Shown: positions 7,187 through 63,485 of the stretch, piece by piece
How positions within the stretch are numbered: the first letter of the stretch is position 1
Layout of the letters: each line of letters starts with the position of its first letter
Source: Chloroflexota bacterium
Lineage (GTDB): Bacteria; Chloroflexota; Dehalococcoidia; Bin125
Assembly (NCBI GenBank): GCA_028874365.1
Contig: JAPPJZ010000062.1
Coordinates: forward strand, 52,611-116,610
Reading direction: 5' to 3'
Length of the DNA stretch: 64,000 bases
The notes under the pieces: generated by a model
What the model was told of the DNA's origin: nothing
The model's database searches: none
What the model saw: the letters and a program-made list of their open reading frames with translations, nothing else
Translations under genes and position numbers: made by a program

Positions 7187-8071
7187 TCAGCGGCCCGTCG
7201 ATCCGAACCCGCCGGAGCCGCGCGCCGTGTCGTCGAGGTCGTCAACCTCTTCCACCGCAGTCAGCGCCACCGGCGCCACGACGAGCTGCGCAATCCGATC
7301 ACCGTGATTGACGCGGTAGCCACGACCCGACGGCCCGCGCAGCGACATCGACACCAACAGCTCACCGCGATAGTCCGCATCGACCGTGCCCCAGCCGATC
7401 TCCACGCCCCGCCGCGTCAGTCCCGAACGCGGTCGAATCTGTATCTCATAGCCCGGCGGTGGCGCGCAGGCAATGCCGGTCGGTACCGGTTGCGGCATCT
7501 GCGAGAGGTTGAGCCAACCGCCCAACTCCGAAAGGTCGGCGTACAGATCGAGGCCGGAAGACAGCTCGGAGCCGCGCGTGGGCAACTGCGCCGCCGCGCG
7601 CAATCGCCGCACGCGCAGGGCTCCGAGCCTGCCGCCCTCCGTCACAGCCCAACGGAACGGCGGGAAGTTGTCCAGCGGTGTGTCCGCCAACACGGCTGGA
7701 TCGTCGGGCGCCTGACGCAGCAGAGCCGCCGCGTCGCCGACCGTCGTCGACACGTCCACTCCCAGGTACGACGGCGCATACGGCGCCAGGCGTTCAATTC
7801 CGGACGACAGTTTGATTCGCACCCCGCGAGGCCGGTGCGTGCCGGTCCAGTGATGCAGGCCGGCTGCCAGCAGGATCAGGCCCTGGTAGAAGCTGCGGAT
7901 TGGTCGACGCTCGACCTGCCAGATCTCTTCCCACGTCTCATGCGCATCAAAGAACTGCTTCGCGTCCCACTCCGCTGCGCCCTTCGCGAGTTCGGCGCGA
8001 TGCGCTGTCGACACTGTCGGTTCAAGCGCGAGTTGTTCCGCTCGGGACGGGATCTCACGAACTCGGGCCAT
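7187..8071 (-). CDS. dut: DUF309 domain fused to dUTP diphosphatase
   Basis: N-terminus FFDAHETWEEIW...GLILLAAGLHH (DUF309-like). C-terminal dUTPase motifs SSGLDLYA, RSGLTRRG, GTVDADYRGEL, GDRIAQLVV, RGSGGFGSTG. Stop 3 nt from crcB start, so likely an operon. Confidence 0.85.
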   Translation of the reverse strand: MARVREIPSRAEQLALEPTVSTAHRAELAKGAAEWDAKQFFDAHETWEEIWQVERRPIRSFYQGLILLAAGLHHWTGTHRPRGVRIKLSSGIERLAPYAPSYLGVDVSTTVGDAAALLRQAPDDPAVLADTPLDNFPPFRWAVTEGGRLGALRVRRLRAAAQLPTRGSELSSGLDLYADLSELGGWLNLSQMPQPVPTGIACAPPPGYEIQIRPRSGLTRRGVEIGWGTVDADYRGELLVSMSLRGPSGRGYRVNHGDRIAQLVVAPVALTAVEEVDDLDDTARGSGGFGSTGR

Positions 8072-8102
8072 CAGGCCGGCCGCCTTCTGCGTTCGCTGAG
8101 CA

Positions 8103-8657
8103 GTGAGTTGTCCCGCCGCCGTCGTTCATCGACACTGTGCGCGACGCCCCACGCGTTGGATACAGGTTGAGGTAAACATCATCGCTGATTCTGTAAACGT
8201 CCAGGCAGCGCTCGCCCAGAACTTCGAAGAACTGCGATCGTTGCTCGACGCCTGCGCCGATGACCGCCTCGACGAACGCCTCGGGCCCGTCGAGTGGTCC
8301 GTTCGCGAAATCCTGCTGCACGTCGTCCACTCCGAGCGTTGGCTGCATCCTCAGCTCATGCTGCTGCGCCGCGAGGTCGCGCCGCAACTCCCGATCCCGC
8401 CCGTCGGCGGCGTCAACCTGCCCGACACGGAGTCCGAGGCATCGCTGCCGGAACTGCGATGGGCACTGACCAGCGTGCGCGAAGACACCGAGCGTCTGCT
8501 CTCCGACCTGTCATCCGATCAGCTCCGCGAACCGGCCAACATCGAACTCGACGGCGATGTGCTCGATATGTCCCTGCGAACCATCGCGCTCACCGCCGCC
8601 GATCACCAGCTCTTCCATGTCCGCCAGATTCAACGGACGCTCGGCATCGCACCCTGA
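8103..8657 (+). CDS. DinB/YfiT-like (DinB_2 family) protein
   Basis: ILLHVVHSERW and HxxxH-type four-helix-bundle motifs; start codon uncertain (probably an internal GTG/TTG near 8160). Confidence 0.6.
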   Translation: MSCPAAVVHRHCARRPTRWIQVEVNIIADSVNVQAALAQNFEELRSLLDACADDRLDERLGPVEWSVREILLHVVHSERWLHPQLMLLRREVAPQLPIPPVGGVNLPDTESEASLPELRWALTSVREDTERLLSDLSSDQLREPANIELDGDVLDMSLRTIALTAADHQLFHVRQIQRTLGIAP

Positions 8658-16990: not shown

Positions 16991-18286
16991 ATGTTCATTG
17001 GCTACTTCACGGAACGTCCCTACCAGGACTTCGAATCGGGCTGGGTCGGAGCGACCGGCCGCGAAATCGAGGACCTCGGGATGACCAATGGGGATTACGA
17101 CCCCCGGATCGGCGCCGAGCTCTACAACCGCTACCTCGACGAGAAGGTCTACGCCGAGGAGATGGGCTTTGACGGCCTGATGCTCAACGAGCATCACTCC
17201 ACCCCGTTCTGCATGGGCGGCGTGATGAACGTCGAAGCCGCGATCCTCGCCCGGATCACCAAGCGCGCCAAGATCGTGCTGCTCGGCAACGTCCTCCCGA
17301 TCTGGGAAGACCCTCTGTGGCTGGCCGAGGAACTGGCCGAGATCGACATGATCTCCCGGGGCCGCCTGGTTACGGGTTGGGTCCGCGGCACCGGCCGCGA
17401 ATCGGTTGCCCACAACTCGCAGGCGCCCTTCAACTGGGAGCGCTTCCAGGAAGCCCACGACTTCGTCGTCAAGGCCTGGTCGACCCCCGGCCCCTTCCGC
17501 TGGGAAGGCGAGCACTACCAGTACCGCTACGTCAACCCCTGGGCGCGCCCCTACCAGGAGCCGCACCCCCAGATCTGGATCCCTGGCGTGATGTCGCGTA
17601 ACACGGTCAAGTGGTGCGCCGAGCATCGCTACCCCTACGTCATGCTCGCCACCGAGATCGAGCCGACCAAGAAGTCGTTCGACTACTACGATGAGGTCGC
17701 GCAGGAAAACGGCTACGAGGCCTCGACCGAGCACCACGGCTACCTCTTCAAGGTCCACGTCGACGAGACCGAAGAACTGGCCGAGGAAGCCGGCCGCAAG
17801 TACATCTCCGGACCGGCCAACCCGTTCCTCGAGGGCAACCAGGGCACCGTCCGCAGCAACCTGCAGAACCTGCCCGGTCTGACTTCGCGCACCCAGCTCC
17901 TGCCGACCGTCAGCACCTTCGCTGCCGCCGCGCGTGGACGCCAGGAGGAACAGAAGGCGGCCCTCGCAGAGAAGGAAGCCGAAACCGACAAGCGCGACGC
18001 CGACGCCTTCGGCACCTACGAGGAACAGGTCAACAAGTACTCCATCATCACGGGTACCCCCAAGACCGTGATCCCCAAGATCCGCCACGTCCTTGAAGAG
18101 CTGCGCCCCGGCAACATCTTCTTCTGGGACGGCGACGGCGCCATGAACCACGACGACGCGATGCGCTCCCTCCGCCTCTTCGGCGAGGAAGTCATCCCCG
18201 CCGTCCGCGAAATGGGCAAGGAACTCGATCTCAAGGGAGCCTTCGAGGTCAACACCCTCACCGGAGACCCAATGTCCGGCGACTAA
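16991..18286 (+). CDS. LLM-class flavin-dependent oxidoreductase (luciferase-like monooxygenase)
   Basis: TIM-barrel LLM signature GFDGLMLNEHH, 431 aa. Confidence 0.85.
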   Translation: MFIGYFTERPYQDFESGWVGATGREIEDLGMTNGDYDPRIGAELYNRYLDEKVYAEEMGFDGLMLNEHHSTPFCMGGVMNVEAAILARITKRAKIVLLGNVLPIWEDPLWLAEELAEIDMISRGRLVTGWVRGTGRESVAHNSQAPFNWERFQEAHDFVVKAWSTPGPFRWEGEHYQYRYVNPWARPYQEPHPQIWIPGVMSRNTVKWCAEHRYPYVMLATEIEPTKKSFDYYDEVAQENGYEASTEHHGYLFKVHVDETEELAEEAGRKYISGPANPFLEGNQGTVRSNLQNLPGLTSRTQLLPTVSTFAAAARGRQEEQKAALAEKEAETDKRDADAFGTYEEQVNKYSIITGTPKTVIPKIRHVLEELRPGNIFFWDGDGAMNHDDAMRSLRLFGEEVIPAVREMGKELDLKGAFEVNTLTGDPMSGD

Positions 18287-18311
18287 TCTCGCACCCGGTT
18301 CGACCAACAGA

Positions 18312-18350
18312 GACCCGCGCCCCCTGCACTGGGGCGCGGGTCTTCTGCGT
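18312..18350 (+). terminator. rho-independent terminator after LLM gene
   Basis: GACCCGCGCCCC-tgcact-GGGGCGCGGGTC followed by TTCTGCGTT, 25 nt after stop. Confidence 0.6.
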
Positions 18351-18600: not shown

Positions 18601-18691
18601 CGCCCCTTCCGACAACCACGATACACCAACCACGAACACCCTTTCTGTATAGTGACCAGAACGTACGTTCACGCTCAGAGAGGGTCCGACC

Positions 18692-19387
18692 ATGCACATC
18701 CCACCCAACCAACGTCGACGCGCCATCCAGGGCCACTACCTCCGCCAACGCGGCCACTCGCTGCGCCAGATCGCCGAACAGCAGAACCTCTGCCCCGACA
18801 TCGTCCGCTCCGACCTCAAGCTCGTCGAAACCCATTGGAGCTCGATCGCCGCCGCGGCTGCCGACGACCTTCTGCTCGAATCGCTGCAGCTCCTCAGGAT
18901 CAGGCTCTCGCTCGCCATCAAGAACGACGATGTCTCCAACAACGCCGAACGCCTCACCCCGGTCGAGTACCTCCGTGCACGCGATGCCCAGGAAACCGGG
19001 CTCAACAACCTCGCCCGCGAAATCCGCCGCACCGCCCAGGACGTCCACCGACGAGCCGCACAGCGCGCCGACCAACCCGACCTCTACGACGATGTACCGC
19101 AAGAACCAGGCGAAAACACTCCAGAACTAGTCAAAACTGACCACCCCGATCGCACGATCTCCAGTCCAGAGCAGAAGATCGTCGAATCTAAGCCCCAGCA
19201 AGAAAAAATTCCCGCGGAAACCGCCCACCTGCCCGATCAGCCCGAGTATGACCCTCTGATCGAGGAGGTCTTCAACGAATTCCCCCACCTCAGAGGCCAG
19301 TCAACCGAGCAAATCCTCGCCTTCCTCGACCAACTCACTGATCCCGAAGCATCGGAGCCCGCTGTCTACGCCGAGGCCGCCGGCTAG
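18692..19387 (+). CDS. hypothetical protein with N-terminal HTH; C-terminal half compositionally atypical (lower GC, E/P/Q-rich)
   Basis: RRRAIQGHYLRQRGHSLRQIAEQQNL resembles sigma-70 region 4 or terminase small-subunit HTH; gene is bracketed by repeat clusters. Confidence 0.5.
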   Translation: MHIPPNQRRRAIQGHYLRQRGHSLRQIAEQQNLCPDIVRSDLKLVETHWSSIAAAAADDLLLESLQLLRIRLSLAIKNDDVSNNAERLTPVEYLRARDAQETGLNNLAREIRRTAQDVHRRAAQRADQPDLYDDVPQEPGENTPELVKTDHPDRTISSPEQKIVESKPQQEKIPAETAHLPDQPEYDPLIEEVFNEFPHLRGQSTEQILAFLDQLTDPEASEPAVYAEAAG

Positions 19388-21292: not shown

Positions 21293-21300
21293 GGGCCAAT

Positions 21301-40721: not shown

Positions 40722-40750
40722 CACCCTCACTACCGCCATTCCCTTTCTAC

Positions 40751-40797
40751 CCCCGCCGGCAGGCGGGGGGAGATGTCACGAAGTGACAGAGGGGGCG
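40751..40797. repeat. family-A nested-hairpin repeat
   Basis: cccccgccggcaggcggggggagatgtcacgaagtgacagagggggcgc. Confidence 0.7.
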
Positions 40798-40885
40798 CAT
40801 CCCACACACCAAGGGACTCCCCACCCTCCCAAGATTCGATACAATCAGAACATACGTACACCTACGACCCAGGGAGCCTCCCAAC

Positions 40886-41212
40886 ATGCCCAACCCCTAC
40901 CACTTCCGAGCACGGATCGACCGAATCTGCCGGCGCGCCTTCGGCAACGGACCCGGCTACCTCCGCCTCAAGGCCCTCAACACTCTCGTCCGCGAACTCC
41001 ACGCCCCCAACGACCGAGCCCGGGCCAACCACCAGATGTATCTCGCCACCGACCCCTACGACGTCGCCCGCCACCAGCTCCGCTACCTCCACGACTCCGC
41101 CTCTCTTTCCTCTCTCCCCCCGCCGTCAGGCGGGGGGAGATGTCTCGTAGAGACAGAGGGGGGCCTCCCACAGGACCAACAACGACCCGACGAAGACGAC
41201 GACCCCTTGTAG
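40886..41212 (+). CDS. small conserved hypothetical protein (MPNPYHFR... family), paralog of 49854..50159; contains an in-frame family-A repeat
   Basis: About 45% identical over the first 73 aa to the minus-strand ORF at 50159; shared MPNP(Y/F)H(F/Y)R N-terminus and ...EDDDPL C-terminus; GGGAGC SD. Confidence 0.45.
   Translation: MPNPYHFRARIDRICRRAFGNGPGYLRLKALNTLVRELHAPNDRARANHQMYLATDPYDVARHQLRYLHDSASLSSLPPPSGGGRCLVETEGGLPQDQQRPDEDDDPL
41110..41166. repeat. family-A repeat embedded in frame in ORF 40886..41212
   Basis: cctctctccccccgccgtcaggcggggggagatgtctcgtagagacagaggggggcc, translated as SLSSLPPPSGGGRCLVETEGG. Confidence 0.7.
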
Positions 41213-41372
41213 TCCCCAAGCGCCATCTCTTTTTTCCCGCGCGTTTTTTTTCGAGCAGGCCGCCAACCGACCCCCCGGCCCCGCCGTGCCCGATCGACAT
41301 CAACTCCGCGATAGCCACGCCCATGCGATGATGAATGTAGCCCCCTGACACTCACCGAATGCGAGGACGCGA

Positions 41373-42545
41373 ATGTTCGACTCCACCATCGTCGACCTGC
41401 GCTACTACCTGGTCCATCCCACCCCGCCGGACACTGGCCAGCCCGACCGCTACATCGCCGGCAAGAACCTCTGCTTCGTCCGACTCGAAACCGCCGACGG
41501 CCTCCACGGTTGGGGCGAGTGCTACACACAGTCCGACCGCGACATCCAGATCACGGCCCACCTCGAGGCCATGCGGCGCTACATCGTCGGCTGGGACGCG
41601 GCACGGATAAAGCCCTGGACCGACGCGATCCACAACGACTTCGGCAACCGACGCGGCGCCATGGACCTCTACTCCGCCATCTCCGGCGTCGAGCAAGCCA
41701 TGTGGGACCTCGCCGGCAAGCGAGCCAATATGCCCGTCCATCAGCTACTCGGCGGTGCCGTCCGCGACCGCCTGCGCGTCTACGCCAACGGCTGGGCCAA
41801 GATGGACGACCTCGAGGAGCTCCAGTCCCGCGCTCGCGCCATGGTCGACCGAGGCTTCAACGCGCTCAAGTTCGACCCCGTCCCGGGCAAATGGCGCAGC
41901 TACGTCGGCATGAGCCAACTCCGCCTCGCCACCGAACGCGTCCGAGCCGTGCGGGAGGCCGTCGGCCCCGACGTCGACGTCCTGCTCGAGATCCACCGCC
42001 GCCTCAGTCCTTCCAACGCCGTCCGACTCTCGAAGATGGTCGAAGAGTACGAACCCTTCTGGTTCGAGGAGCCGGTCTGGGCCGAGAACATGACCGCCCT
42101 CGCAGCCGCCACCGCGCAGATCAACATCCCCACCGTCACCGGCGAGGAGCTCTACACCAAGTTCGAGTTCCGCGAGGCCTTCGAGCAGCGCGCCGCCGAC
42201 ATCATCAACCCCGACGTCGCCAACGTCGGCGGGATCAAGGAGCTGACCGAGATCGCGGCGATGGCCGAGATCTACTTCGTGGCCGTCGCGCCGCACAACT
42301 ACAACTCGACCACCATGGCGCTCGCCTCAACCCTCAACGCCGCCGCCACGATGCCCAACTTCATCATCACCGAGTACTTCGTCAACTTCGAACCTTGGGG
42401 CCAGCAAGCCGCCGCCCCACCCTTCGAGGTCGAAGACAGCCACATCGCCCTCCCCACCGCCCCAGGCCTCGGCCTAGATCTCGACGAAGAAGTGCTCAAG
42501 GCACACCCAGCCAAAGACTTCCCCACCCGCACGATTGGAGGCTGA
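41373..42545 (+). CDS. enolase-superfamily enzyme (mandelate racemase / muconate-lactonizing / sugar-acid dehydratase type)
   Basis: Capping domain plus TIM-barrel pattern with conserved metal-binding D/E region ...KFDP...EEP...; 390 aa. Confidence 0.8.
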   Translation: MFDSTIVDLRYYLVHPTPPDTGQPDRYIAGKNLCFVRLETADGLHGWGECYTQSDRDIQITAHLEAMRRYIVGWDAARIKPWTDAIHNDFGNRRGAMDLYSAISGVEQAMWDLAGKRANMPVHQLLGGAVRDRLRVYANGWAKMDDLEELQSRARAMVDRGFNALKFDPVPGKWRSYVGMSQLRLATERVRAVREAVGPDVDVLLEIHRRLSPSNAVRLSKMVEEYEPFWFEEPVWAENMTALAAATAQINIPTVTGEELYTKFEFREAFEQRAADIINPDVANVGGIKELTEIAAMAEIYFVAVAPHNYNSTTMALASTLNAAATMPNFIITEYFVNFEPWGQQAAAPPFEVEDSHIALPTAPGLGLDLDEEVLKAHPAKDFPTRTIGG

Positions 42546-42549
42546 CTCG

Positions 42550-42999
42550 ATGCGCCAGCTCAGCGCCATCCTGCCGGAAGACGCCTGCACCTACCGCGGC
42601 GACCGCTGGGTGTCGATCTTCATCGTGCTGCTCACTATCGTTGCGACCCTGCGCAGCGTGATCCATATCGCCCGGCACGACGGCGGCGCCGCATCTATCG
42701 CGGGCATCGACATCGAGGTCGAGGGCGGGCAGAACATCGTCGCGATCTTCGCTCAGTGGGGCTTGGTGCAACTCCTGCAGGCCTCGCTCGGCTGGGTCGT
42801 CGTGTGCCGCTACCGAGGATTGATTCCACTGATCCTGCTGATCAGCCTGCTCGAGAACGTCGGGCGAATTGTCATTGGCCGCTCAAAGCCGCTCAAGGTG
42901 GCGAAACCGCCGCCGGGCGCATACGGCTCCCTGATCATCTCGCCGATCCTGCTCATCGCCTTCTGGCGCTCACTGCCTCAGAGTGAACGCTCGCCGTGA
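42550..42999 (+). CDS. hypothetical membrane protein (4 TM)
   Basis: Start overlaps enolase stop (GGAGGCTGA ctcg ATG); hydrophobic segments. Confidence 0.45.
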   Translation: MRQLSAILPEDACTYRGDRWVSIFIVLLTIVATLRSVIHIARHDGGAASIAGIDIEVEGGQNIVAIFAQWGLVQLLQASLGWVVVCRYRGLIPLILLISLLENVGRIVIGRSKPLKVAKPPPGAYGSLIISPILLIAFWRSLPQSERSP

Positions 43000-43883
43000 T
43001 CGGCATGCCGACTCATGAAGTCCCGCAACGCAGCGATGACCCGCTCCGGCGCCTCCTCGGCGACGAAGTGACCAACGTCGTCGTAGTCGTAGACCTCGGT
43101 GTAGTCCAATGCCGACCGCCAGCGATCCAACTCCTTCCGGCGAAACGCGATGTCCCGCAGACCCCAAAAGATCAGCGTCGGCTTGTCGACGAATCGCGCC
43201 CGGTCCTCCCAGATATCACCCAGCCACTGGCTCGCCCGGATGATGTGACCAGGCAGCGCAGCACAGGCCGAGCGATCGCGCGGCGATGGCTGGGCACTGC
43301 GGTAGTGCGCCATCATCTCGGCTGTAATCGCCGACCTGGCAGCGATCGCTCTCGGCATCACCCCATTGACGAAGAAGTTGCGACGTTTGATCAGGTACTG
43401 TCCCAGCGGACACCACATCATCAGGCTGAACATCAGGAAGTGCGGGTCGCGGTTGACCGGCCAGCACCACGTGTTGGCCAGTACCATCCGCGAAACACGC
43501 CCCGGCCGACGACGAGCAAAGTCGAGACCAATCGGCCCGCCCCAGTCCGTCATCAACAACGTGATCTCACTGACGTGCAGCTCGTCCAACAGCGCCGCCA
43601 GCCGCCGAGCATGTGCATGCGGGTGGTGGTCGTCCTTGTTGTCGCTGCGAGACGACAATCCGAATCCCACATGATCGGCAGCGATGCAGCGATAGTCGGA
43701 CCGCAGGTCGGCGATCAGGTGGCGAAACTCGAACGACCAGGACGGATTGCCATGTACGAAGACGATGGCCGGGCCTTCGCCCTCATCGACATAGTGCATC
43801 CGCTGTCCGTCGGGCGTCTCGAAGTACCGGCTCTCGAACGGGTACATCTCGTCGGAGACCCATCCGGGCCTCACACCGTTCAT
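42978..43883 (-). CDS. alpha/beta-fold hydrolase, haloalkane-dehalogenase-like
   Basis: FVHGNPSWSFEFRHLI (compare HGNPTSSYLWR), nucleophile-elbow region DWGGPIG. Confidence 0.75.
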   Translation of the reverse strand: MNGVRPGWVSDEMYPFESRYFETPDGQRMHYVDEGEGPAIVFVHGNPSWSFEFRHLIADLRSDYRCIAADHVGFGLSSRSDNKDDHHPHAHARRLAALLDELHVSEITLLMTDWGGPIGLDFARRRPGRVSRMVLANTWCWPVNRDPHFLMFSLMMWCPLGQYLIKRRNFFVNGVMPRAIAARSAITAEMMAHYRSAQPSPRDRSACAALPGHIIRASQWLGDIWEDRARFVDKPTLIFWGLRDIAFRRKELDRWRSALDYTEVYDYDDVGHFVAEEAPERVIAALRDFMSRHADHGERSL

Positions 43884-43922
43884 GACGCAGACTCCCGACG
43901 AGACGTCCCGTCTGGAGCCCCA

Positions 43923-45215
43923 CTACAACAACGCTTCGTAGACGCCCTTCTCGAAGTCGGTCTCCAGGTACGCGACGGGGTTGAACTGGTACATGAACAC
44001 GTGGGTGAAGAACAGTCCGGCGAGGTTCTCGGCCGGGTCAACGAAGAACCACGTGCCCGCGGCGCCGCCCCATCCGTATGTGCCGACACTGCCGGGATAC
44101 GCCGTGCCGGCGATCCGGTCGCGCACCGCGTATCCGAACCCGAATCCAAATCCGGGGCCGGCCAAATCGATCTCCGTTCCGCAGATCGCGCCGAGGTGGT
44201 TCGCGGTCATCAGCTCAATCGTCTTCCGACCGAGTACACGCACCCCGTCCAGTTCTCCGCCGTTGAGCAGCATCGCGGCGAAGCGCGTGTACGCCGCCGG
44301 CGTCATCAGCACGCCACCGTACAGTCCGTTGCCGGATATCTGCTGGCCCAGCGACTCGCGCACCTTGTGCGAGGTCTCGGGCCGCTCGACCGGATTGAGC
44401 GCGCCCTCCTCGGACCAGTGGTGATTGGTGACCAGTCGAGCGGCATCGCCAGGCGGACAGTAGAAGCCACAGCCCTCGACCCCCAGCGGTCCAAAGATCC
44501 GCTCCTGGAAGAGCTCGTCGAGGTTCTGCCCGGTCGCTCGTTCGAGCAGCAGGGTCAGGACATCGAAATCCGCCGCATACTCCCACGCCGCGCCGGGCTG
44601 CCGCGCGTTGGGGAGCTGCGCCATCTGCAGCACGCGTGTCTCCGCCGACACCGACGTATCGACAACGCCCGGGTTGGTGATCCCGAATTCGGTACCGCTC
44701 CAGGCCGGTTCGAGCAGCGGAAACATCCCCGACGGAATGTTGCCGAACGATGGCAAGCCCGATGTCATCGTCAGCAGATCGCGAATCGTGATCTGCCTGA
44801 CCATCGGCACCGTCTGGCCCATCAGCAAGCCCTGTCCACGGACCTTGTTGGGTGGATCGAACGGGGCCAAGACCTGGCGGTTCTCGAACTCCGGCAGCCA
44901 CTTCGTGATGGGCTCGTCAACGTAGAAGACGCCCTCCTCCTGCAGTTGCATCGTCAGCGCGGCCGTGACCGGCTTGGTCTGCGAGTACATACGGAACAGC
45001 GCGTCGATCGGCAGCGGATTCTTGCGTTCCGAATCCAGGTACCCGTGCGACGAGACGTGCGCGAGATGACCATGCCGAAGCAGAACCGTCACCACGCCGG
45101 GGACCTCGTCGTTCTCAACAGCTTGCGCCATGCGAGCGTCAACACGTGCCAGCCGCTCGGCGTCGATACCGAGCGAGGCAGGATCGGCGGCAGGAAGATT
45201 GGCAAAGTCGGACAT
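43923..45215 (-). CDS. beta-lactamase-family (class-C-like) serine hydrolase
   Basis: SQTK (SxxK) motif; start MSDFANLP at 45215 (track ORF extends to 45458). Confidence 0.75.
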   Translation of the reverse strand: MSDFANLPAADPASLGIDAERLARVDARMAQAVENDEVPGVVTVLLRHGHLAHVSSHGYLDSERKNPLPIDALFRMYSQTKPVTAALTMQLQEEGVFYVDEPITKWLPEFENRQVLAPFDPPNKVRGQGLLMGQTVPMVRQITIRDLLTMTSGLPSFGNIPSGMFPLLEPAWSGTEFGITNPGVVDTSVSAETRVLQMAQLPNARQPGAAWEYAADFDVLTLLLERATGQNLDELFQERIFGPLGVEGCGFYCPPGDAARLVTNHHWSEEGALNPVERPETSHKVRESLGQQISGNGLYGGVLMTPAAYTRFAAMLLNGGELDGVRVLGRKTIELMTANHLGAICGTEIDLAGPGFGFGFGYAVRDRIAGTAYPGSVGTYGWGGAAGTWFFVDPAENLAGLFFTHVFMYQFNPVAYLETDFEKGVYEALL

Positions 45216-45297
45216 GATCGGCTCCTTGCTGAAAGACTGGCCTGTCGAGGATAGGCGCTGGGATCGCGTAGTCTCGGCATGATCAAGGGAGGTCGGC

Positions 45298-46509
45298 ATG
45301 GCGTACGAGTATGACCGCAACATCCGCGACAGGGTGGCGGTGATCGGTGTCGGCGAGACGGAGTACACGAAGCACGGACGCATCGGGCGTCCGGAGTTCC
45401 GCCTCGCCCTCGAGGCCATCCTCGCCGCCTGCGCCGACGCAGGACTCGAACCACGCATGTTGGATGGCTTCTCCTCCTACTCCGCCGATCGCAACGATCC
45501 CAACCGGCTCTCGACGGCGCTCGATCTGCCCCACTACGCCTTCGCCTCGATGGTCTACGGCGGAGGTGGTGGAGGCGTCTGCGCGGCGATCGGCAACGCA
45601 GCCGCCGGCATCGTCGCCGGCTATGCCAACTTCGTCGTGGTCTACAGAGCCCTGGCGCAGGGCGAGTTCGGTCGCTTCGGCCAGTCACGCCGGGGCGGCC
45701 GGCTGCGAGGTCAGTACGCCTTCAATGTGCCCCAGGGCCTGATGTCGCCGGCACAGTTCCTGGCAATGAAGATGCAACGCCATATGTACGAGTACGGAAC
45801 TACGTCCGAACATCTGGGACACATCGCTGTCGCCGCGAACAAGCATGCGCAGAACAATCCCCGCGCGGTGATGAACGGACGGCCGATCACGCTGGAAGAT
45901 CATCAGAACTCCCGCATGATCGCCGACCCATATCGGCTCTACGACTGCTGCCTCGAGACCGATGGCGCAGCGGCAATGATCCTCACCACCGCGGAGATCG
46001 CCCGCGACTTCACCGACAAGCCGGTCTACCTGGCGGCTTCTGTGCAGGGCTCCGGCCATCGACAGGGCAACGTGGTGGATGGCTTCTGGCACGACGACTT
46101 CATGAGTTCCAACTACACGACGATGGTCGACCGGCTGTATTCGGCCGCAGGCATGGGCCCGGACGAGATCGACTGCGGTCAATTCTACGAGAACTTCACC
46201 GGCCAGGTGCTGACCTCGTTTGAGGACCACAAGTTCTGCGAGGTCGGCGAGGGCGGCCCCTTCTGCGAAGGCGGACGACTTGAGACGAAGCAGGTCGCCG
46301 AGCCCGGCGCACCGTACGCGGGCGAGTTCCCGATCAACACCTCCGGCGGCAATCTGTCCGAGGCATACACCCACGGATTCAATCTCGCCGTCGAAGCAAT
46401 CCGTCAGCTGCGAGGCGACTCGTCCAATCCGGTCGAAGGCGCGAGAACCTGCATTGTCGCGGCCGGTCCGGCGTCCGCGCCAATCTCGTCGGCGATCTTC
46501 CGCAACTGA
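45298..46509 (+). CDS. thiolase-like protein, SCP-x / lipid-transfer (Ltp) type
   Basis: Thiolase fold without the classic active-site Cys motif; GGGGGG loop; usual partner DUF35 lies nearby. Confidence 0.75.
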   Translation: MAYEYDRNIRDRVAVIGVGETEYTKHGRIGRPEFRLALEAILAACADAGLEPRMLDGFSSYSADRNDPNRLSTALDLPHYAFASMVYGGGGGGVCAAIGNAAAGIVAGYANFVVVYRALAQGEFGRFGQSRRGGRLRGQYAFNVPQGLMSPAQFLAMKMQRHMYEYGTTSEHLGHIAVAANKHAQNNPRAVMNGRPITLEDHQNSRMIADPYRLYDCCLETDGAAAMILTTAEIARDFTDKPVYLAASVQGSGHRQGNVVDGFWHDDFMSSNYTTMVDRLYSAAGMGPDEIDCGQFYENFTGQVLTSFEDHKFCEVGEGGPFCEGGRLETKQVAEPGAPYAGEFPINTSGGNLSEAYTHGFNLAVEAIRQLRGDSSNPVEGARTCIVAAGPASAPISSAIFRN

Positions 46510-46516
46510 GCCCGCG

Positions 46517-47551
46517 CTAGGAGAGCGCCCGCTTGATGCAGTGACTGGTCGGTAGCGAATGCTCTCCAGCCTCTCGCTGGGCGATCGCCTGCCCGAGCAT
46601 CTGCCCGATCTGATTCTGCAACTTGCGGGAACGCGTCCAGCCGATGAAGCTCTCCTGCATGATCGTCACCACATAGCGGGGTTGCGATCCGAGCCAGGGC
46701 GGAGCCAACCAGATGGCGGCGCTGTTCATCCGCACGAGGGCGCGCACCCTGCTCGCCTGTGACCGGAGCGGCGAGTCGCCGACTTCCTCTGCTTCTGCCT
46801 CGTCTTCGGCCCGCTGGAGGTCGCGTATGAGCAAGGCCGCGTCCTCGTAGTCGCGCGGGTTGATCTTTGCGATGGGATCGTCGTCCTCGGATTCGGGGAT
46901 CGTGAAGTTGCCGGTCTTGATCAGCGACTCCCAGCCGGGAAGCATGGGTTCGGGGATCGTTGCGCCCCAGCGGTGGTTGTCGACTACCTCGCGGAGCAGG
47001 TCGAAGCCATCGGCCCGCGCGTCGTGCGGGACGGACTCGGATCGCGCCAGCGCGGCGAAGAGCCGGGCCAGATGGATCGGCTCGGCCCGGCTGGCGCCCC
47101 AGCGGCTGCGATGGGTGAGTTCGATCAGTTCCGGAACGCCCCAGCGTTCGTAGTACTCGGTCAGTCCGGCCAGGCCGCCGATCATCGACAGCAAGGTGGT
47201 CACGTCGGGATTCTGCGACCAGGCGACCATGTAGAACAGGGCGTCACGTTGCAGCTTGGTCAGCTCCCTCCCCTCGTCGTACGCATCGCTGAGGATGGCC
47301 CAGGCGATGGGCGGCTTGATCACGCTATGCAGGGCGTATGGTCCCGAGTGGCCGCCGGTCCAGATCGTCTCGGTTTCCAGGTCATAGACCGCAGCGCCGA
47401 TCACGGCGTCAACGCTCAGCACTTGACGTTCGAATTCGTTCGAGAGGGCGCACAGCGGGGCGTCGGCCGAGGCCGGTCGGGGGACCGCGATCAAGATCAG
47501 GGCAGGGAGCATCAAGGCGGGCAACAGGGCGAGGGCGGGCAGTCGGCGCAT
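46517..47551 (-). CDS. secreted class-A-beta-lactamase-fold serine hydrolase
   Basis: Signal peptide; all three class-A motifs present: SVIK (SxxK), SQN (SDN-loop variant), KTG. Confidence 0.6.
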   Translation of the reverse strand: MRRLPALALLPALMLPALILIAVPRPASADAPLCALSNEFERQVLSVDAVIGAAVYDLETETIWTGGHSGPYALHSVIKPPIAWAILSDAYDEGRELTKLQRDALFYMVAWSQNPDVTTLLSMIGGLAGLTEYYERWGVPELIELTHRSRWGASRAEPIHLARLFAALARSESVPHDARADGFDLLREVVDNHRWGATIPEPMLPGWESLIKTGNFTIPESEDDDPIAKINPRDYEDAALLIRDLQRAEDEAEAEEVGDSPLRSQASRVRALVRMNSAAIWLAPPWLGSQPRYVVTIMQESFIGWTRSRKLQNQIGQMLGQAIAQREAGEHSLPTSHCIKRALS

Positions 47552-47594
47552 GCCGCGTCAGCGTACTAGGCAGACAACGCGTTACTCTCGCGCT

Positions 47595-48056
47595 ATGACG
47601 AGTTCGAGCCAGCCTGCGGAGTTCCTGGATGCCCCATACTTCCCGGACGGGATGAGCGTTCCGGACCCGGACGATGCGATCAACGGCGGTTACTTCGCCG
47701 CGGCCGCCGACAGGCGGCTCGTGGTTCAGCGCTGCGCCGACTGTGGCACTCGACAGTATCCGCCGGAGTTGAACTGCCATGCGTGCTACGGCTTCAACAT
47801 GGAGTGGGAAGAGTCGGTCGGGACCGGGACGGTCTGGTCGTGGGTCGAGGTCGTGCACCCTGCCCATCCGGCGTTGCGCGAGTTCGGGCCATACATGGTG
47901 GCGTTGGTCGAATTGGACGATATGCCCGAGATCAAGCTGATGGGCGCGGTGGTTGATGCTCCGCTGGGCGGGACGATGAAGATCGGCGCGCGGGTGCGTG
48001 TGGTCTTCGAGCGGACGGCGGACGACCTCGCACAACCACGCTGGCACATGGCATGA
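47595..48056 (+). CDS. DUF35 zinc-ribbon / OB-fold protein (thiolase partner)
   Basis: CADCGTRQYPPELNCHAC rubredoxin-like zinc ribbon followed by OB fold; start MTSSSQP. Confidence 0.75.
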   Translation: MTSSSQPAEFLDAPYFPDGMSVPDPDDAINGGYFAAAADRRLVVQRCADCGTRQYPPELNCHACYGFNMEWEESVGTGTVWSWVEVVHPAHPALREFGPYMVALVELDDMPEIKLMGAVVDAPLGGTMKIGARVRVVFERTADDLAQPRWHMA

Positions 48057-49753
48057 CGGCTCAGGTGCCCGCTGCTTCGACGGCGGCATCGACTTCTCGT
48101 CGGCGCTGGGTGATCCTGCTGGTTCTGGCCGGGTCGCAGATGCTCGTCCAGCTTGACGCCACGATCATCAACACGGCGCTGCCGGCGATCAAGCGGGCCT
48201 TCGAGATGTCGGAGGCGCAGTCGCTCTGGGTGGCCGACGCCTACATGGTGATATTCGGCGGCTTGCTGCTGCTCGCGGGGGCGCTCGGCGACCGTTTCGG
48301 CCGGCGCAAGATGCTGATCGCTGGCATGGCGATCTTCGTCGTGGCGTCGATCGCGGTGGCGTTCTCGCCAGACGCCAACTTCATGATTGTCGGACGCGGA
48401 TTGCAGGGGCTGGGCGGGGCGCTGGTGATCCCGCAGACACTGTCGATCCTGACCGCGGTGTTCCCGCGTGAAGAGCGCGGCCGTGCGATCGGCATCTGGG
48501 CGGGAGCGATGGGCTTCGGGATGGCGTTTGGACCGCTGGTGGGCGGCGTCCTGGTCGACCTTATTGGTTGGGCGGGCGTGTTCTGGGTTCCGGCGCCGAT
48601 CGCCGCGCTCTGCATGGCGGGTATGGCCGCCGTACCAGAGTCGCGTTCGCAGATGCATACCAAGCTTGATGTGCCGGGCGCGATCACCGGAACGATCGCG
48701 ATGGTTGCGATCGTCTTTGCGATCATCGAGGGCATTCAGAAGGGTTGGAGTGATCCGCTGATCGTGGGTTCGTTCGCGGTGGCGATCGTCTCGGCCGTGA
48801 TGTTCATCGTGATCGAGCGGCGCACCGACCAACCGTTGCTGCCGATGGCCTTCTTCAAGCAGCGAGACTTCACCGGCTCGATGGTTGGCATGTTCTTCAT
48901 CATGTTTGCCCTGATGGGCGTGATGTTCTACATGCCGCAGTTCTTCCAACTCGTGCAGGGCATGTCTGCCTCGGAGAGCGGCGCGCGGCTGATGCCGCTG
49001 GCGCTTGCGATGATGATCTTCGCACCGATCATGGCCAAGTTGCTGCCCAAGCTTGGACCACGATTCATGTTGTTCTGGGCGCCCGCCGTACACGGCGGCG
49101 GCGCACTGTTGTTGTTCAGCTTCATTCTCGACATCGACACGCCGTACTGGATGATTGGCCTGGGGATGGCGTTCCTGGGGATGGGCGGGGCGATGCATAT
49201 GCCGGCCACGACGGACACGGCGATGGCGTCGGTGCCGGTCGACCTGGCCGGGAAGGCGTCGGCGGTGAACAACGCCGGTCGGCAGTTGGGCGGGACGCTG
49301 GCGATCGCGATCCTCGGTTCGTTTGCGGCGGCGGTGTACTCCTCCGGGGTGACGTCTGGGCTGACGCCGCTTGGTATCGCCGAAGGATCGGTCGAGATCT
49401 TGGCGACCGGGATCGGCGCGGCGCAGCAGGTGTTTCCGACGCTTGATCAGAGTGTGCTCGGTCCGGCGCAACTCGTCCTGCGGGAGTCGTTCGTCGAGGC
49501 GATCCGGGACACGATGCGGTTCGGGATCGTGTTTGCGTTGATCTCGGGCATTGTGGGGTGGTTGCTGGTGCCGAAGCGTCAGCGTCAGACACAGATGCAG
49601 TGGGAGGGCGGCCAGCCTGTCGAGCAAGGGTCCGCGGCGGCCGCGATGCCAGCCGGTACCTCGAACGGGGCGGCCGCCAACGGGGCGCGTGAGTTCGCGC
49701 CCAGTGGCAGATCGGTCGTCCTGCAGCGGCCGCAGAAGTCGGGGTTTGGCTGA
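48053..49753 (+). CDS. MFS transporter, DHA2 (EmrB/QacA, 14-TM) family
   Basis: 14 hydrophobic segments; MFS motif A GxLxDRxGRR. Confidence 0.85.
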   Translation: MTAQVPAASTAASTSRRRWVILLVLAGSQMLVQLDATIINTALPAIKRAFEMSEAQSLWVADAYMVIFGGLLLLAGALGDRFGRRKMLIAGMAIFVVASIAVAFSPDANFMIVGRGLQGLGGALVIPQTLSILTAVFPREERGRAIGIWAGAMGFGMAFGPLVGGVLVDLIGWAGVFWVPAPIAALCMAGMAAVPESRSQMHTKLDVPGAITGTIAMVAIVFAIIEGIQKGWSDPLIVGSFAVAIVSAVMFIVIERRTDQPLLPMAFFKQRDFTGSMVGMFFIMFALMGVMFYMPQFFQLVQGMSASESGARLMPLALAMMIFAPIMAKLLPKLGPRFMLFWAPAVHGGGALLLFSFILDIDTPYWMIGLGMAFLGMGGAMHMPATTDTAMASVPVDLAGKASAVNNAGRQLGGTLAIAILGSFAAAVYSSGVTSGLTPLGIAEGSVEILATGIGAAQQVFPTLDQSVLGPAQLVLRESFVEAIRDTMRFGIVFALISGIVGWLLVPKRQRQTQMQWEGGQPVEQGSAAAAMPAGTSNGAAANGAREFAPSGRSVVLQRPQKSGFG

Positions 49754-49853
49754 GTTGATCATCCTTAGTCGATGGGGGAGGGCACGGCAGAGCCAAGGGT
49801 CGGCGTTCGGCGCTCCCTGAAAGAAAGAGCTGGCGAAAAAGAGAGGCGGCGGA

Positions 49854-50159
49854 CTACAAGGGGTCGTCGTCCTCCGCGGGTGGTTGTTCTTCCTGCAGGG
49901 TGGCCCCGGCATGCGCGGGGGCGACTTCAACTAGCGCGGGGGAGGCGCGGTCGTAGAGGTCGCGGAGGAGGTGGCGGGCGTACTCGTAGGCGTCGACAGC
50001 GTTGAGCATTTGCTGGGCAATGGCGTAGCGGGGCCGGCCGGGGATGAGATCGCGAGCGAGCGCGTCAAGCGCCCGGAGTCGGATGTATGCAGGCTTGGGT
50101 CCATTGACGGTTCGCCAGAGCTGATTGACGTGGGTTCGGTAGTGGAATGGGTTGGGCAT
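49854..50159 (-). CDS. small conserved hypothetical protein (MPNPFHYR... family), paralog of 40886..41212
   Basis: See 40886..41212; GGAGGA SD. Confidence 0.45.
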   Translation of the reverse strand: MPNPFHYRTHVNQLWRTVNGPKPAYIRLRALDALARDLIPGRPRYAIAQQMLNAVDAYEYARHLLRDLYDRASPALVEVAPAHAGATLQEEQPPAEDDDPL

Positions 50160-50224
50160 GATCGGCTCCTCCGGAGACGATGGTATCAGAACGGGCGTGC
50201 GGTATAAGTATCGTGGTTGGCGGA

Positions 50225-50312
50225 GGCCCCCGCCTTCGCGGGGCCAGCACTCAATGGTTGGCGGAGGGGCAGGCTCTAGCCCTCTCTCCCTCGGAGAGGG
50301 GATCAGAGGGGC
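50225..50312. repeat. GGCCCCCGC-cttc-GCGGGGCC hairpin plus family-B repeat
   Basis: cctctctccctcggagaggggatcagagggg at 50281-50312. Confidence 0.6.
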
Positions 50313-61655: not shown

Positions 61656-62159
61656 TTACGCCAACTCGGACCAGGCGAGGCGTACGGCCTGCTTGGCAGC
61701 ACCCGCGTGGAAACCTCGCATTGTTAGGCGTCGCGCTTGCGCGGGTCCGAATTCGCTCCAGGTCAAGGCAGCGTTGCGACTTTGGGCCAGGCGCAACTTC
61801 TGTCGCGCAATATGCAGAGCGACCGCGAGATCATCCAACTCACCTCGTCGTTCGAGGAGTCCCAGCGTCTCCCTGATGACATCGGAGGCGAGTCCAGCGA
61901 CATTGAGTTTGGCGGCGATCTCGTTGCGGCTGTAGCGCTGCCGGCGGATGAGGCGGCGTGCTTCATGCGTGGCCAGGTCGAACGAAGCCGATTCGCGCAG
62001 CCGATCGACGAAAACGGGATCGATCTCCTGTCCGCGAGAGAAATGCGAGCGGGCGGCGAAATCGCGAGTACAGCGCAGCGACGTGCCGTCGTCGAAGTCA
62101 ACGGTGGAGAGTGCACCGCTGGCGTGGATTGACAGCACCTCGGTCATCGACCGGTCCAA
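61656..62159 (-). CDS. recX: RecA regulator RecX
   Basis: Three-helix repeats; position immediately downstream of recA. Confidence 0.7.
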   Translation of the reverse strand: MDRSMTEVLSIHASGALSTVDFDDGTSLRCTRDFAARSHFSRGQEIDPVFVDRLRESASFDLATHEARRLIRRQRYSRNEIAAKLNVAGLASDVIRETLGLLERRGELDDLAVALHIARQKLRLAQSRNAALTWSEFGPAQARRLTMRGFHAGAAKQAVRLAWSELA

Positions 62160-62177: not shown

Positions 62178-63392
62178 TCAGCCAGCGCGAGCGCGACCCT
62201 TTTTCTTGGGGGGTGGCTTGGCGATCGGGGTGGCGTCGGGCGTGCCTTCGGCGGGCATCAGTTCAGGGGCCTGGGGCAGCCCGCGTTCCTCGCGGATGCG
62301 GGCTTCGATCTCTTCGGCCACGTCGGAGTGCTCGCGGAGGAAGGCCTTGGTTCGTTCTCGACCCTGACCGAGCCGCGTGTCGCCGTAGGAATAGAAGGTG
62401 CCCTGTTTCTTGATCACCGAAGGGCTGCCTGTGGGCAGGTCGGGCGCGGGCTCGACGCCGAGGTCGATCAGACAGCCGGTCTTGGAGATGCCGTATTCGG
62501 CGGCGGTGAACATGAGATCGAACTCGGCGGTGCGGAAGGGCGGCGCGACCTTGTTCTTGACCACCTTGGCCTTGACGCGCGAACCGATGACCATCTGGCC
62601 ATCTTTGAGGGTTTCGGCGCGGCGCAGCTCGATGCGTACGGAGGAATAGAACTTGAGGGCGCGGCCGCCGGGCGTGGTCTCGGGGTTGCCGAAGACGATG
62701 CCGACCTTCTCGCGCAACTGGTTGATGAAGATCAGGACGGTCCTGGAGCGGGAGACGACGGCGGTGAGCTTGCGCAGCGCCTGGGACATGAGTCGGGCTT
62801 GCGCCCCGACCTGAACGTCTCCCATTTCCCCCTCGATCTCGGCTCGCGGGACAAGCGCAGCGACGGAGTCGACGACGACGACATCGATGGCGTTGCTGCG
62901 CACGAGGGCTTCGGCGATTTCGAGGGCCTGCTCTCCGGTGTCGGGCTGGGCGATGAGCAGCTGAGACGTGTCGATGCCCAGGCGCGAGGCGAACTCGGGG
63001 TCGAGCGCGTGCTCGACATCGACGTAGGCGGCCTGGCCGCCGAGGCGCTGCGCCTCGGCGATGACGTGCTGGGCGACGGTCGACTTGCCGGCGGATTCGG
63101 GACCGTACACCTCGACGATGCGGCCGCGGGGCAGGCCGCCAATCCCGAGGGCGACATCGAGCGAGAGTGCGCCGGTGGGAATTCCGTCGACCGACATTCG
63201 CCCACTCGCGTCGCCAAGGCGCATGAGCGCGCCTTCGCCGAAGCGGCGTTCCATGTCGCCGAGCAGTTCCGTGACCGCGGGAGGAGGTTCGTTGCTGGTG
63301 GTCATGGGCAGAGGTTCTTGTGCGTTGTCGGTGAGCGGGATGGGTTCGAGCAGGTCTGCGCCGTCGGTGGTGTTCGTCGGGTTAGATGTCAT
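62178..63392 (-). CDS. recA: recombinase RecA
   Basis: Walker [11 protein letters not shown]1/L2 loops; start MTSNPT at 63392 (track ORF extends to 63485). Confidence 0.9.
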
Positions 63393-63456
63393 AATATGCG
63401 CTGCCTTTCTGACGTTCGCGATGCGATGCAGAGGGGTGCGAACGTGTGTGCTGCGC

Positions 63457-63485
63457 ACACTACCAACGAATGCGGTCAATGTCAA
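63457..63485 (-). promoter_or_regulatory. sigma-70-type recA promoter (TTGACA-17 nt-TAGTGT) with overlapping 15-bp inverted repeat GTGTGC-N3-GCACAC
   Basis: On minus strand: gcTTGACAttgaccgcattcgttggTAGTGTgcgcagcacac; the -10 overlaps the inverted repeat at 63446-63460. Confidence 0.45.

Follow-up and report, generated by a model that had tools for sequence, protein, structure and literature searches.

Two small open reading frames (ORFs) on opposite strands of the 64,000-nucleotide stretch of Chloroflexota DNA analyzed here (hereafter the window) are the subject of this study, together with the promoters, repeats, and 3' elements that accompany them. The two ORFs converge across 8.6 kb, align by BLASTP over their whole length (40% identity over 110 columns, E 2e-23), and both end in EDDDPL, in agreement with an earlier note on this DNA that had called them paralogs. 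A tblastn search found no third copy in the window. The features recognized at the two genes are the following.

40739..40795, plus strand: intergenic family-A palindrome of the repetitive extragenic palindrome (REP) type, upstream of the plus cassette; double hairpin, -34.1 kcal/mol, z -3.75
40840..40845, plus strand: -10-like hexamer TACAAT of the plus copy (type A promoter), at a position conserved family-wide
40847..40859, plus strand: candidate LexA-type operator AGAACATACGTAC, directly after the -10 box; holds the octamer ATCAGAAC
40871..40876, plus strand: ribosome-binding site (RBS) AGGGAG of the plus copy, 9 nt before the ATG; an AAGGAG-like sequence stands at the same place in all members
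40886..41212, plus strand: coding sequence of the plus copy, 108 amino acids (aa), with a start of the MPNP(Y/F)H(F/Y)R type and the end EDDDPL
40886..41101, plus strand: N-terminal basic four-helix domain, aa 1-72, from the family alignment and an AlphaFold2 model of the paralog
41106..41162, plus strand: family-A repeat translated in frame in the linker of the plus copy (LSSLPPPSGGGRCLVETEGG); double hairpin
41189..41209, plus strand: acidic C-terminal tip DEDDDPL of the plus copy, from translation and family alignment
41213..41292, plus strand: pyrimidine-rich, family-specific 3' element of the plus copy (CTCTTTTTT-CCCGCGCG-TTTTTTTT ... GGCCCCGCCGTGCCCG)
49779..49853, minus strand: 3' element of the minus copy, ending in GGCTCTGCCGTGCCC
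49854..50159, minus strand: coding sequence of the minus copy, 101 aa, identical to P0001, "hypothetical protein OXN86_10445"
49857..49877, minus strand: acidic C-terminal tip AEDDDPL of the minus copy, from translation and family alignment
49903..49922, minus strand: decayed palindromic repeat in the linker of the minus copy (GCCCCCGCGCATGCCGGGGC, translated VAPAHAGA); weak hairpin, z 0.27
50166..50172, minus strand: RBS GGAGGAG of the minus copy
50180..50185, minus strand: -10-like hexamer TACCAT of the minus copy, with TG before it (50187-50188)
50189..50200, minus strand: candidate operator GCACGCCCGTTC of the minus copy (type B promoter, operator upstream of the -10 box), in the form of the recA operator
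50226-50245 and 50276-50311, no strand assigned: two REP-like palindromes between a GMC oxidoreductase gene and the minus-copy promoter

The two genes have diverged far from each other. Their N-terminal domains share 43% identity and belong to two deep subfamilies, the DNA of the domain differs by pS 0.48 and pN 0.39 (proportions of differing synonymous and nonsynonymous sites), which matches the nucleotide identity of about 60% reported earlier, and each copy has its own ortholog, 91 to 97% identical, in a relative. The description of the pair as diverged paralogs, and not as the arms of one element, is thus upheld. Real genes should also have homologs in other genomes, and more than 100 family proteins were found. 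Among 5.8 billion proteins searched, 100 homologs of 85 to 128 aa came up, none with a Pfam domain, and a profile search of 1.84 billion representative proteins returned 35 clusters only, with no informative domain fusion; two long profile matches considered as domain fusions were rejected as unrelated repeat or LysM proteins. The family profile had no Pfam or NCBIfam match at E up to 10, and no relatives were found in 2.9 million viral contigs. With one genome per species scanned, 25 family loci were located in 15 metagenome-assembled genomes (MAGs), all titled Dehalococcoidia, Chloroflexota, or Chloroflexi, and one 3.33-Mb chromosome holds at least five dispersed copies. Complete chromosomes with family members include OZ247431.1 and OZ242948.1. 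Judging by record names, we take the MAGs with the family to come largely from marine sponges; a RecA with 80% identity is filed under the sponge Geodia barretti. The window itself was mapped to scaffold_156 (149 kb) in the ENA assembly ERZ23495530, and the minus-copy protein is identical to one from a Chloroflexota MAG.

The ratio of nonsynonymous to synonymous divergence (dN/dS) of the N-terminal domain lies between 0.04 and 0.12 among orthologs (0.04 to 0.06 for the minus copy), values which indicate that this domain is under strong purifying selection. For the plus copy, whose ortholog on the related contig L002 is 83% identical overall, the ratio is 0.12, and its consensus operator, acidic tip, and 3' element are all intact, which contradicts the suggestion that this copy is decaying. 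Because dN/dS is low, more than 100 sequences share the start (MPNP...) and the stop (after DDDPL), and an RBS precedes every ATG, both ORFs are, on comparative grounds, real coding genes of a lineage-restricted multicopy family. We give practically no credence to the alternative that they are spurious, that is, high-GC or repeat-generated frames without a protein product. High-GC DNA does give many long spurious ORFs, as the overlapping frames here illustrate, each of the two ORFs consists partly of repeat sequence, and the database names of the homologs are all "hypothetical protein." Such frames, however, would not be expected to combine conserved termini and low dN/dS with an RBS at a fixed distance, a confident fold prediction, and a reading frame kept through insertions of many lengths in all members except one. 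The exception, the member at locus L020 (5001-5903), is frame-broken in the linker and reads into unrelated sequence (300 aa) without reaching an acidic tip; it is probably a pseudogene.

The encoded proteins share a simple layout, for which the composition figures given here refer to 125 distinct family sequences. According to the alignment and the AlphaFold2 model, four helices (residues 4-19, 24-38, 45-54, and 57-71) are followed by a disordered linker and then by a tail. The model has a mean predicted local distance difference test score (pLDDT) of 78, with values of about 90 for residues 1-70 and below 50 for residues 76-96. The linker is 21 to 59 aa long and consists of P, A, G, and E at 12 to 17% each. 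The ends of the protein are oppositely charged, the N-terminal domain carrying a mean net charge of +3.6 and the last 12 residues one of -7.4. The family tip reads EEDDDP(L/W)-COOH, and 112 of the 125 members end in DDDP(L/W); E96, D97, D98, and D99 are each conserved in at least 90%, and P100 (position -2) is invariant. No meaningful match was found in profile libraries, by PDB sequence search, or by fold search; the structure prediction proposed in the earlier note yielded a helical model and no known fold. Likewise, neither DinI, SulA/YneA, RecX, nor a polymerase matched the family (Pfam/NCBIfam, E up to 10), and the family alignment contains no hydrophobic segment.

The linker is where repeat DNA has entered the genes. 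Four copies of the family-A repeat occur in the window (at 21297, 31833, 40739, and 41106, versus 0 expected), and the one at 41106 is translated in the plus linker, where the stretch 41100-41170 forms a double hairpin of very high stability (-43.5 kcal/mol, z -3.9). The earlier note had described this copy, whose in-frame position we confirm, as replacing a segment of the paralog. It is not the case, however, that a repeat stands in place of native sequence in one of the two genes only; the minus linker also holds a palindrome, decayed here but present in its intact form, GTCGCCCCCGCGCAGGCGGGGGC, in linkers elsewhere in the family. In fact, translated repeats are the norm of the family. At least 81 of the 125 sequences carry one of six recognizable translated palindromes, some nested or in tandem (among them VAPAQAGA, PLPLGEGWGEG, PPPSGGGRC...ETEGG, PAPERGP, and PALDA), and the linker DNA of all 25 members tested matches repeats outside family genes. 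With the great majority of members still ending in the acidic tip, the idea that the repeat is tolerated as coding sequence stands. Every other copy of these repeat families in the window is intergenic, and at least three families of REP-like palindromes occupy nearly every intergenic gap (18559, 19423, 21297, 22749, 31833, 33166, 38683, 40739, 50226, 50276, 51923, 51997, and 58603); the PLPLGEGWGEG peptides found in other members of the family derive from one of these, CCCTCTCCC...GGGAGAGGGTTGGGGTGAGGG.

The repeats turn over in the linker, as can be read from the sequences of orthologs, because genes at the same locus carry different repeats. At the plus-copy locus, the window has family A, L002 has family A with a nested insert, and the related contig L029 has PLPLGEGRG plus VAPAKAGA, and the frame to the acidic tip is kept despite this turnover in all members but the one at L020. 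It is possible that insertion is favored at pre-existing repeats or, alternatively, that longer flexible tethers have been selected. In-frame palindromic repeats are known from the Rickettsia RPE, the Bordetella BRE, and the pneumococcal RUP and SPRITE elements (PMC3184786). The linker repeats share with them a dispersed copy elsewhere, a hairpin-forming palindrome, the lack of stops, an insertion-tolerant segment, and a frame that runs through to a conserved downstream part. They differ from RPE and BRE in that one small gene family has been struck at one position in most of its members, and in that several unrelated repeat families, nested or in tandem, have turned over there while a seven-residue downstream tail was preserved.

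A conserved N-terminal part followed by a hypervariable segment in small multicopy genes could also be read as a conserved leader and a variable core, as in the precursors of ribosomally synthesized and post-translationally modified peptides (RiPPs), or the family could be a toxin/antitoxin-type small protein; SOS-controlled small toxins such as TisB and SymE exist elsewhere. However, the variable part is made of repeat DNA that leads into an invariant tail and is not a core peptide, no maturase, transporter, or partner gene recurs nearby, the hydrophobic segment is missing, and PADLOC gave no match, all of which makes this reading highly improbable.

We now turn to the promoters, for which two further sites in the window serve for comparison.

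63440..63467, minus strand: recA promoter, TAGTGT followed by AGCACACACGTTC, with the same layout of -10 box and operator
18648..18670, plus strand: promoter of the ORF 18692..19387, TATAGT followed by the perfect palindrome AGAACGTACGTTC

The plus copy has the layout TACAAT-C-AGAACATACGTAC (40840-40859), and the minus copy GCACGCCCGTTC-TGA-TACCAT (50200-50180). Both arrangements recur in the family. In most members, a -10-like hexamer is followed at once by AGAAC-N4-GTAC; in the second arrangement, the dyad stands before the hexamer. The dyad takes the form GAAC-N4-GTAC or G(C/T)AC-N4-GTTC, and, of 28 family promoters, 19 fit the pattern GAAC-N4-(G/A)T(A/T)(C/T), the others keeping a perfect half-site at the same place. 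The octamer that the earlier note had seen upstream of both genes, ATCAGAAC at 40843-40850 and GTTCTGAT on the minus strand, does occur before each of them; it is part of this family-wide promoter/operator, and its tie to an island boundary is not borne out.

The same class of site is found at genes of DNA repair. The recA promoter of the window reads TTGACA, 17 nt, TAGTGT, GCGC, AGCACACACGTTC, and GCAC-N4-GTTC is kept in the recA promoters of four relatives (RecA 80 to 91% identical), which we located by protein search and contig look-ups. A second GAAC-containing half-site, TAGAACGTTTGC, overlaps the recA -35 box and is conserved in two relatives; recA itself occupies 62178..63392 on the minus strand, with a recX-like gene downstream (61656..62159). 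At locus L010, a PA0069/Rv2578c-type radical SAM gene (7392-8252; photolyase-like) has GAACACATGTAC in its promoter, between TTGACG and TACTAT; the ATG of this gene follows the -10 box by about 7 nt, so that its mRNA is possibly leaderless. In P. aeruginosa, PA0069 belongs to the SOS genes, and in M. tuberculosis, a LexA chromatin immunoprecipitation peak has been seen at Rv2578c. In Firmicutes and Actinobacteria, the motif of LexA is GAAC-N4-GTTC, of which variants occur in Chloroflexi (PMC4951493). A composite pattern, defined as a -10 hexamer adjoining G[ACT]AC-N4-GT[AT]C, occurs four times in the 64-kb window, always before a start codon: at the plus copy, the minus copy, recA, and the ORF at 18692..19387. 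On locus L017 (4475-4620), GAGAACCAAAGTTCAC stands 63 nt upstream of an 82-aa ORF (MCRSIKRLR...QFVRKISG), about 500 nt before a family member; this ORF presumably resembles DUF2277-type proteins.

Because the dyad fits the LexA motif and recurs at the promoters of recA and of the PA0069/Rv2578c-type radical SAM gene, we propose that it is the LexA operator of this lineage and that the family genes would be repressed together with recA and induced by DNA damage, a reading that is moderately supported. Like the operators of LexA regulons with the Gram-positive box, the sites are 12-bp dyads with a GAAC half-site that overlap the -10 box or the transcription start, and they belong to the site class found at recA and the radical SAM gene; they differ from those operators in that one half-site is systematically GTAC (in the family) or GCAC (at recA), so that the palindrome is not perfect. 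Alternatively, the dyad might be the operator of another regulator, whose regulon would not be a DNA damage response. The 231-aa product of the ORF at 18692..19387, with an N-terminal segment resembling a helix-turn-helix (HTH), would be a candidate: its promoter holds the only perfect GAACGTACGTTC palindrome of the window, as expected of an autoregulated repressor, the family sites deviate consistently from GTTC, and no lexA was observed in the window or the fetched loci. Yet this protein has no match in Pfam, NCBIfam, or PHROGs and no homolog in the other fetched loci, whereas the site class is conserved in the recA promoters of four relatives and stands before the radical SAM gene, recA and that gene being classic LexA targets. 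Moreover, both the motif and its RNRY-like spacer agree with the LexA box published for Gram-positive bacteria and Chloroflexi. The rule for this spacer is seen in the B. subtilis LexA consensus, CGAACRNRYGTTYC. On balance, we regard control by another regulator as unlikely, though it deserves to be kept in mind.

Downstream of the genes, the likeness between the two copies does not end with the protein. The sequence GACGACGACCCCTTGTAGTCC is exact in both, followed by T-rich tracts, and some 80 to 100 nt after the stop codon are conserved across paralogs that share 40% protein identity. The order of this 3' element is CTCTCTTTTTT, CGCGCG, TTTTTTTT, CTCAC(R)GG, a short variable stretch, and CCCGGCCCCGCCGTGCCCG, after which the likeness ends abruptly. 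It is also where T runs are concentrated: 32 of the 34 runs of at least 7 T in 395 kb of these genomes fall within it. No structure could be assigned to it. Rfam gave no relevant match, RNAalifold found zero pairs in a consensus on either strand, single-sequence folds were no better than those of shuffled sequences, and there is no terminator hairpin. A hok-like fold-back, in which the 3' untranslated region (UTR) would pair with the 5' UTR or the RBS, was rejected because the duplex energies were not more favorable than those of shuffled controls (mean z +0.46). A T run at position 7709 of locus L005, considered as a second 3' element, was rejected as well, as it belongs to a poorly assembled poly-G/N stretch; the segment in question (7650-7930), between an rpoC-like gene and groEL, consists of poly-G/poly-C runs and N's and is probably an assembly artifact, not a repeat element. 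The 3' element may be a hairpin-less terminator or Rho site, a regulatory segment of the 3' UTR, or the edge of a duplication unit, and the T tracts or GCCGTGCCCG may mark the end of the transcript.

Taken together, these observations are what we would expect if both ORFs were functional members of a lineage-restricted, multicopy family of stand-alone cassettes, probably under LexA control, an interpretation that we hold with somewhat more confidence than doubt. According to this model, LexA would repress the family genes together with recA, and DNA damage would induce them. We picture the product as a small adaptor or competitor in which a flexible linker joins the folded basic core to the acidic tip with its final proline and hydrophobic residue; this tip would dock into the basic/hydrophobic pocket of a partner or fold back on the basic domain of the protein itself. 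Since the linker would need only to be flexible and in frame, repeats could accumulate and turn over there.

Several points weigh against this interpretation. The composite promoter pattern is expected 0.17 times in the window under a Markov model, and none of 300 simulations reached four occurrences, but the pattern was defined after the sites had been seen, so that its statistic is indicative only. Neither the window nor any fetched locus showed a lexA gene, and the repressor is thus assumed; the family dyad consistently has GTAC, and not the canonical GTTC, in one half-site; and a consensus scan gives no sigma-70 promoter, a -35 box being missing. In addition, this model does not account for the conserved 3' element.

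That the protein acts in the damage response as an adaptor, a competitor, or an autoinhibited binder is speculative and is proposed because its layout parallels those of SSB and of Hfq with its acidic tail. SSB combines a folded core with a disordered linker and a 9-residue acidic tip that recruits partner proteins (...DFDDDIPF in E. coli; PMC7145534). The family resembles it in layout only: a basic folded domain, a disordered linker of variable length rich in proline, glycine, and alanine, and an acidic tip with proline and a hydrophobic residue. The oligonucleotide/oligosaccharide-binding (OB) fold core of the SSB family is not found, the model being all-helical with four helices and no SSB Pfam match being obtained, and, compared with D-D-D-(I/L)-P-F of SSB, the tip DDDP(L/W) has the acidic run, the proline, and the C-terminal hydrophobic residue but lacks both the Ile/Leu before the proline and the terminal Phe. 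In Hfq, the acidic C-terminal domain folds back on the basic RNA-binding rim and inhibits the protein itself (PMC5606850). By analogy, the family might tether a core resembling nucleic acid-binding domains to an acidic tip that acts as a nucleic acid mimic or autoinhibitor; unlike Hfq, it has no Sm fold, and nucleic acid binding by its helical domain is only putative. The proteins also differ from known SOS proteins, resembling none of DinI, SulA/YneA, RecX, or polymerases.

The cassette as a whole has its own dynamics. It measures about 0.5 kb, is monocistronic, and extends from about -60 relative to the ATG to about +100 after the stop. On the chromosome OZ247431.1, five copies are 84 to 93% identical across exactly this unit, with sharp edges and unrelated sequence outside, and two of the five (L011 and L015) have the REP CCCAGTTCCCGCTTCACGCGGGAACCCG on both sides in direct orientation, some 60 nt ahead of the cassette and some 110 nt behind it. 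Other copies form orthologous pairs, 96 to 99% identical, between genomes. The type of promoter can differ between orthologs, the minus copy of the window having type B and its L002 ortholog type A, and the L029 ortholog of the plus copy is 62% identical in the N-terminal domain where neighboring genes are about 95% identical. This combination suggests that the family evolves by birth and death, together with gene conversion or the replacement of cassettes; the cassette may also be truly mobile.

It is tempting to go further and regard the cassette mainly as a selfish or mobile unit, copied by REP-associated recombination or by transposition, with the 3' element and the promoter edge as its recombination ends. 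The sharp boundaries in OZ247431.1, the REPs around two of these copies, the swapped promoter types and replaced N-terminal domain at orthologous loci, and the clustering of REPs upstream of, inside, and downstream of cassettes would all agree with it. Gene conversion between paralogs explains sharp edges of homology equally well, however, and no transposase or recombinase is linked to the cassettes, nor could terminal inverted repeats or target duplications be identified. Many copies are, furthermore, stable orthologs across genomes, and the strong purifying selection and the invariant tip argue for a host function, so that a mainly selfish nature seems improbable to us. We consider it more doubtful still, as a joint claim, that the proteins are DNA damage-inducible "SSB-tail mimics," whose EEDDDP(L/W)-COOH end competes for or recruits SSB partners in the SOS response, whose tether is continually rebuilt from selfish repeats that also help to copy the whole cassette, and whose 3' element is the cassette end or a new type of hairpin-less termination or processing signal.

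It remains to consider the 8.6 kb between the two genes, which the earlier note had described as an island bracketed by them. The enclosed genes encode an enolase-superfamily enzyme, a 149-aa ORF, an alpha/beta hydrolase, two beta-lactamase-fold proteins, a thiolase-like protein with a DUF35/ChsH2-type partner, and an MFS transporter. The comparison of GC and tetranucleotide composition suggested in the note was feasible and speaks against an island, since it shows no shift: the GC content is 0.647 compared with 0.650 for the whole window, and the tetranucleotide distance ranks 35th among 56 windows of equal size. Between 30000 and 60000 of the window, GC skew tracks gene orientation, with a C-rich coding strand (about -0.1 to -0.27 for plus-strand genes and +0.1 to +0.24 for minus-strand genes). 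No integrase or transposase families are among the Pfam matches listed for the bracketed genes. On L002 and L029, contigs of related MAGs, the same genes stand in the same order with both small ORFs present, although genomic islands are expected to vary in presence among close relatives. The sole difference of L029 within the block is a ParE-toxin gene with a 79-aa partner (17751-18316), inserted between the enolase-superfamily gene and the 149-aa ORF.

The paralogs might nonetheless be boundary markers, or co-regulated flanking genes, of an acquired catabolic (hydrolase/CoA) island. In favor of this, two related inverted genes flank metabolic genes that look accessory, the convergent pair and the enclosed genes have been kept together in three related genomes, and two copies within 8.6 kb are denser than the genome average of about one per several hundred kb. 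At 5 to 10 copies per 3 to 4 Mb, however, we roughly estimate a 10% chance that some pair lies within 10 kb. In contrast to the near-identical terminal repeats of a composite element, the arms are only about 60% identical in DNA (apart from one 57-nt stretch at 81%), and mobility genes and a shift in composition are missing. Nor do family members flank catabolic islands as a rule: other members stand singly in unrelated contexts, a homolog with 65% identity (P0005) lying between a nucleoside hydrolase and a luciferase-like monooxygenase, and no neighboring gene recurs across 27 family loci, where the top "clusters" were alternative-frame artifacts of the family gene. An island is therefore very improbable, and the spacing of the two copies is a conserved local arrangement in the clade, to which we attach no functional meaning. 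Correcting the island reading matters for the annotation of the enclosed metabolic genes, for which it would otherwise be misleading.

SOS-box genes, in-frame palindromic repeats, and acidic-tip adaptors are known principles; new is their combination in an undescribed family. If the interpretation of stand-alone, LexA-controlled cassettes is true, the family would be an unusually clean natural case of selfish palindromic repeats recruited as protein sequence, in which one disordered linker has been struck repeatedly and the only visible constraints are the reading frame and a seven-residue tail. It would thus lend itself well to studies of how disordered regions arise or grow longer through repeats, and the acidic tip and the hairpin-less, T-rich 3' element offer short, sharply defined motifs that can be tested. 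We know of no experimental work on damage responses in these organisms; if our interpretation holds, an unannotated, lineage-specific family would join the predicted SOS regulon of uncultivated Dehalococcoidia/Chloroflexota.

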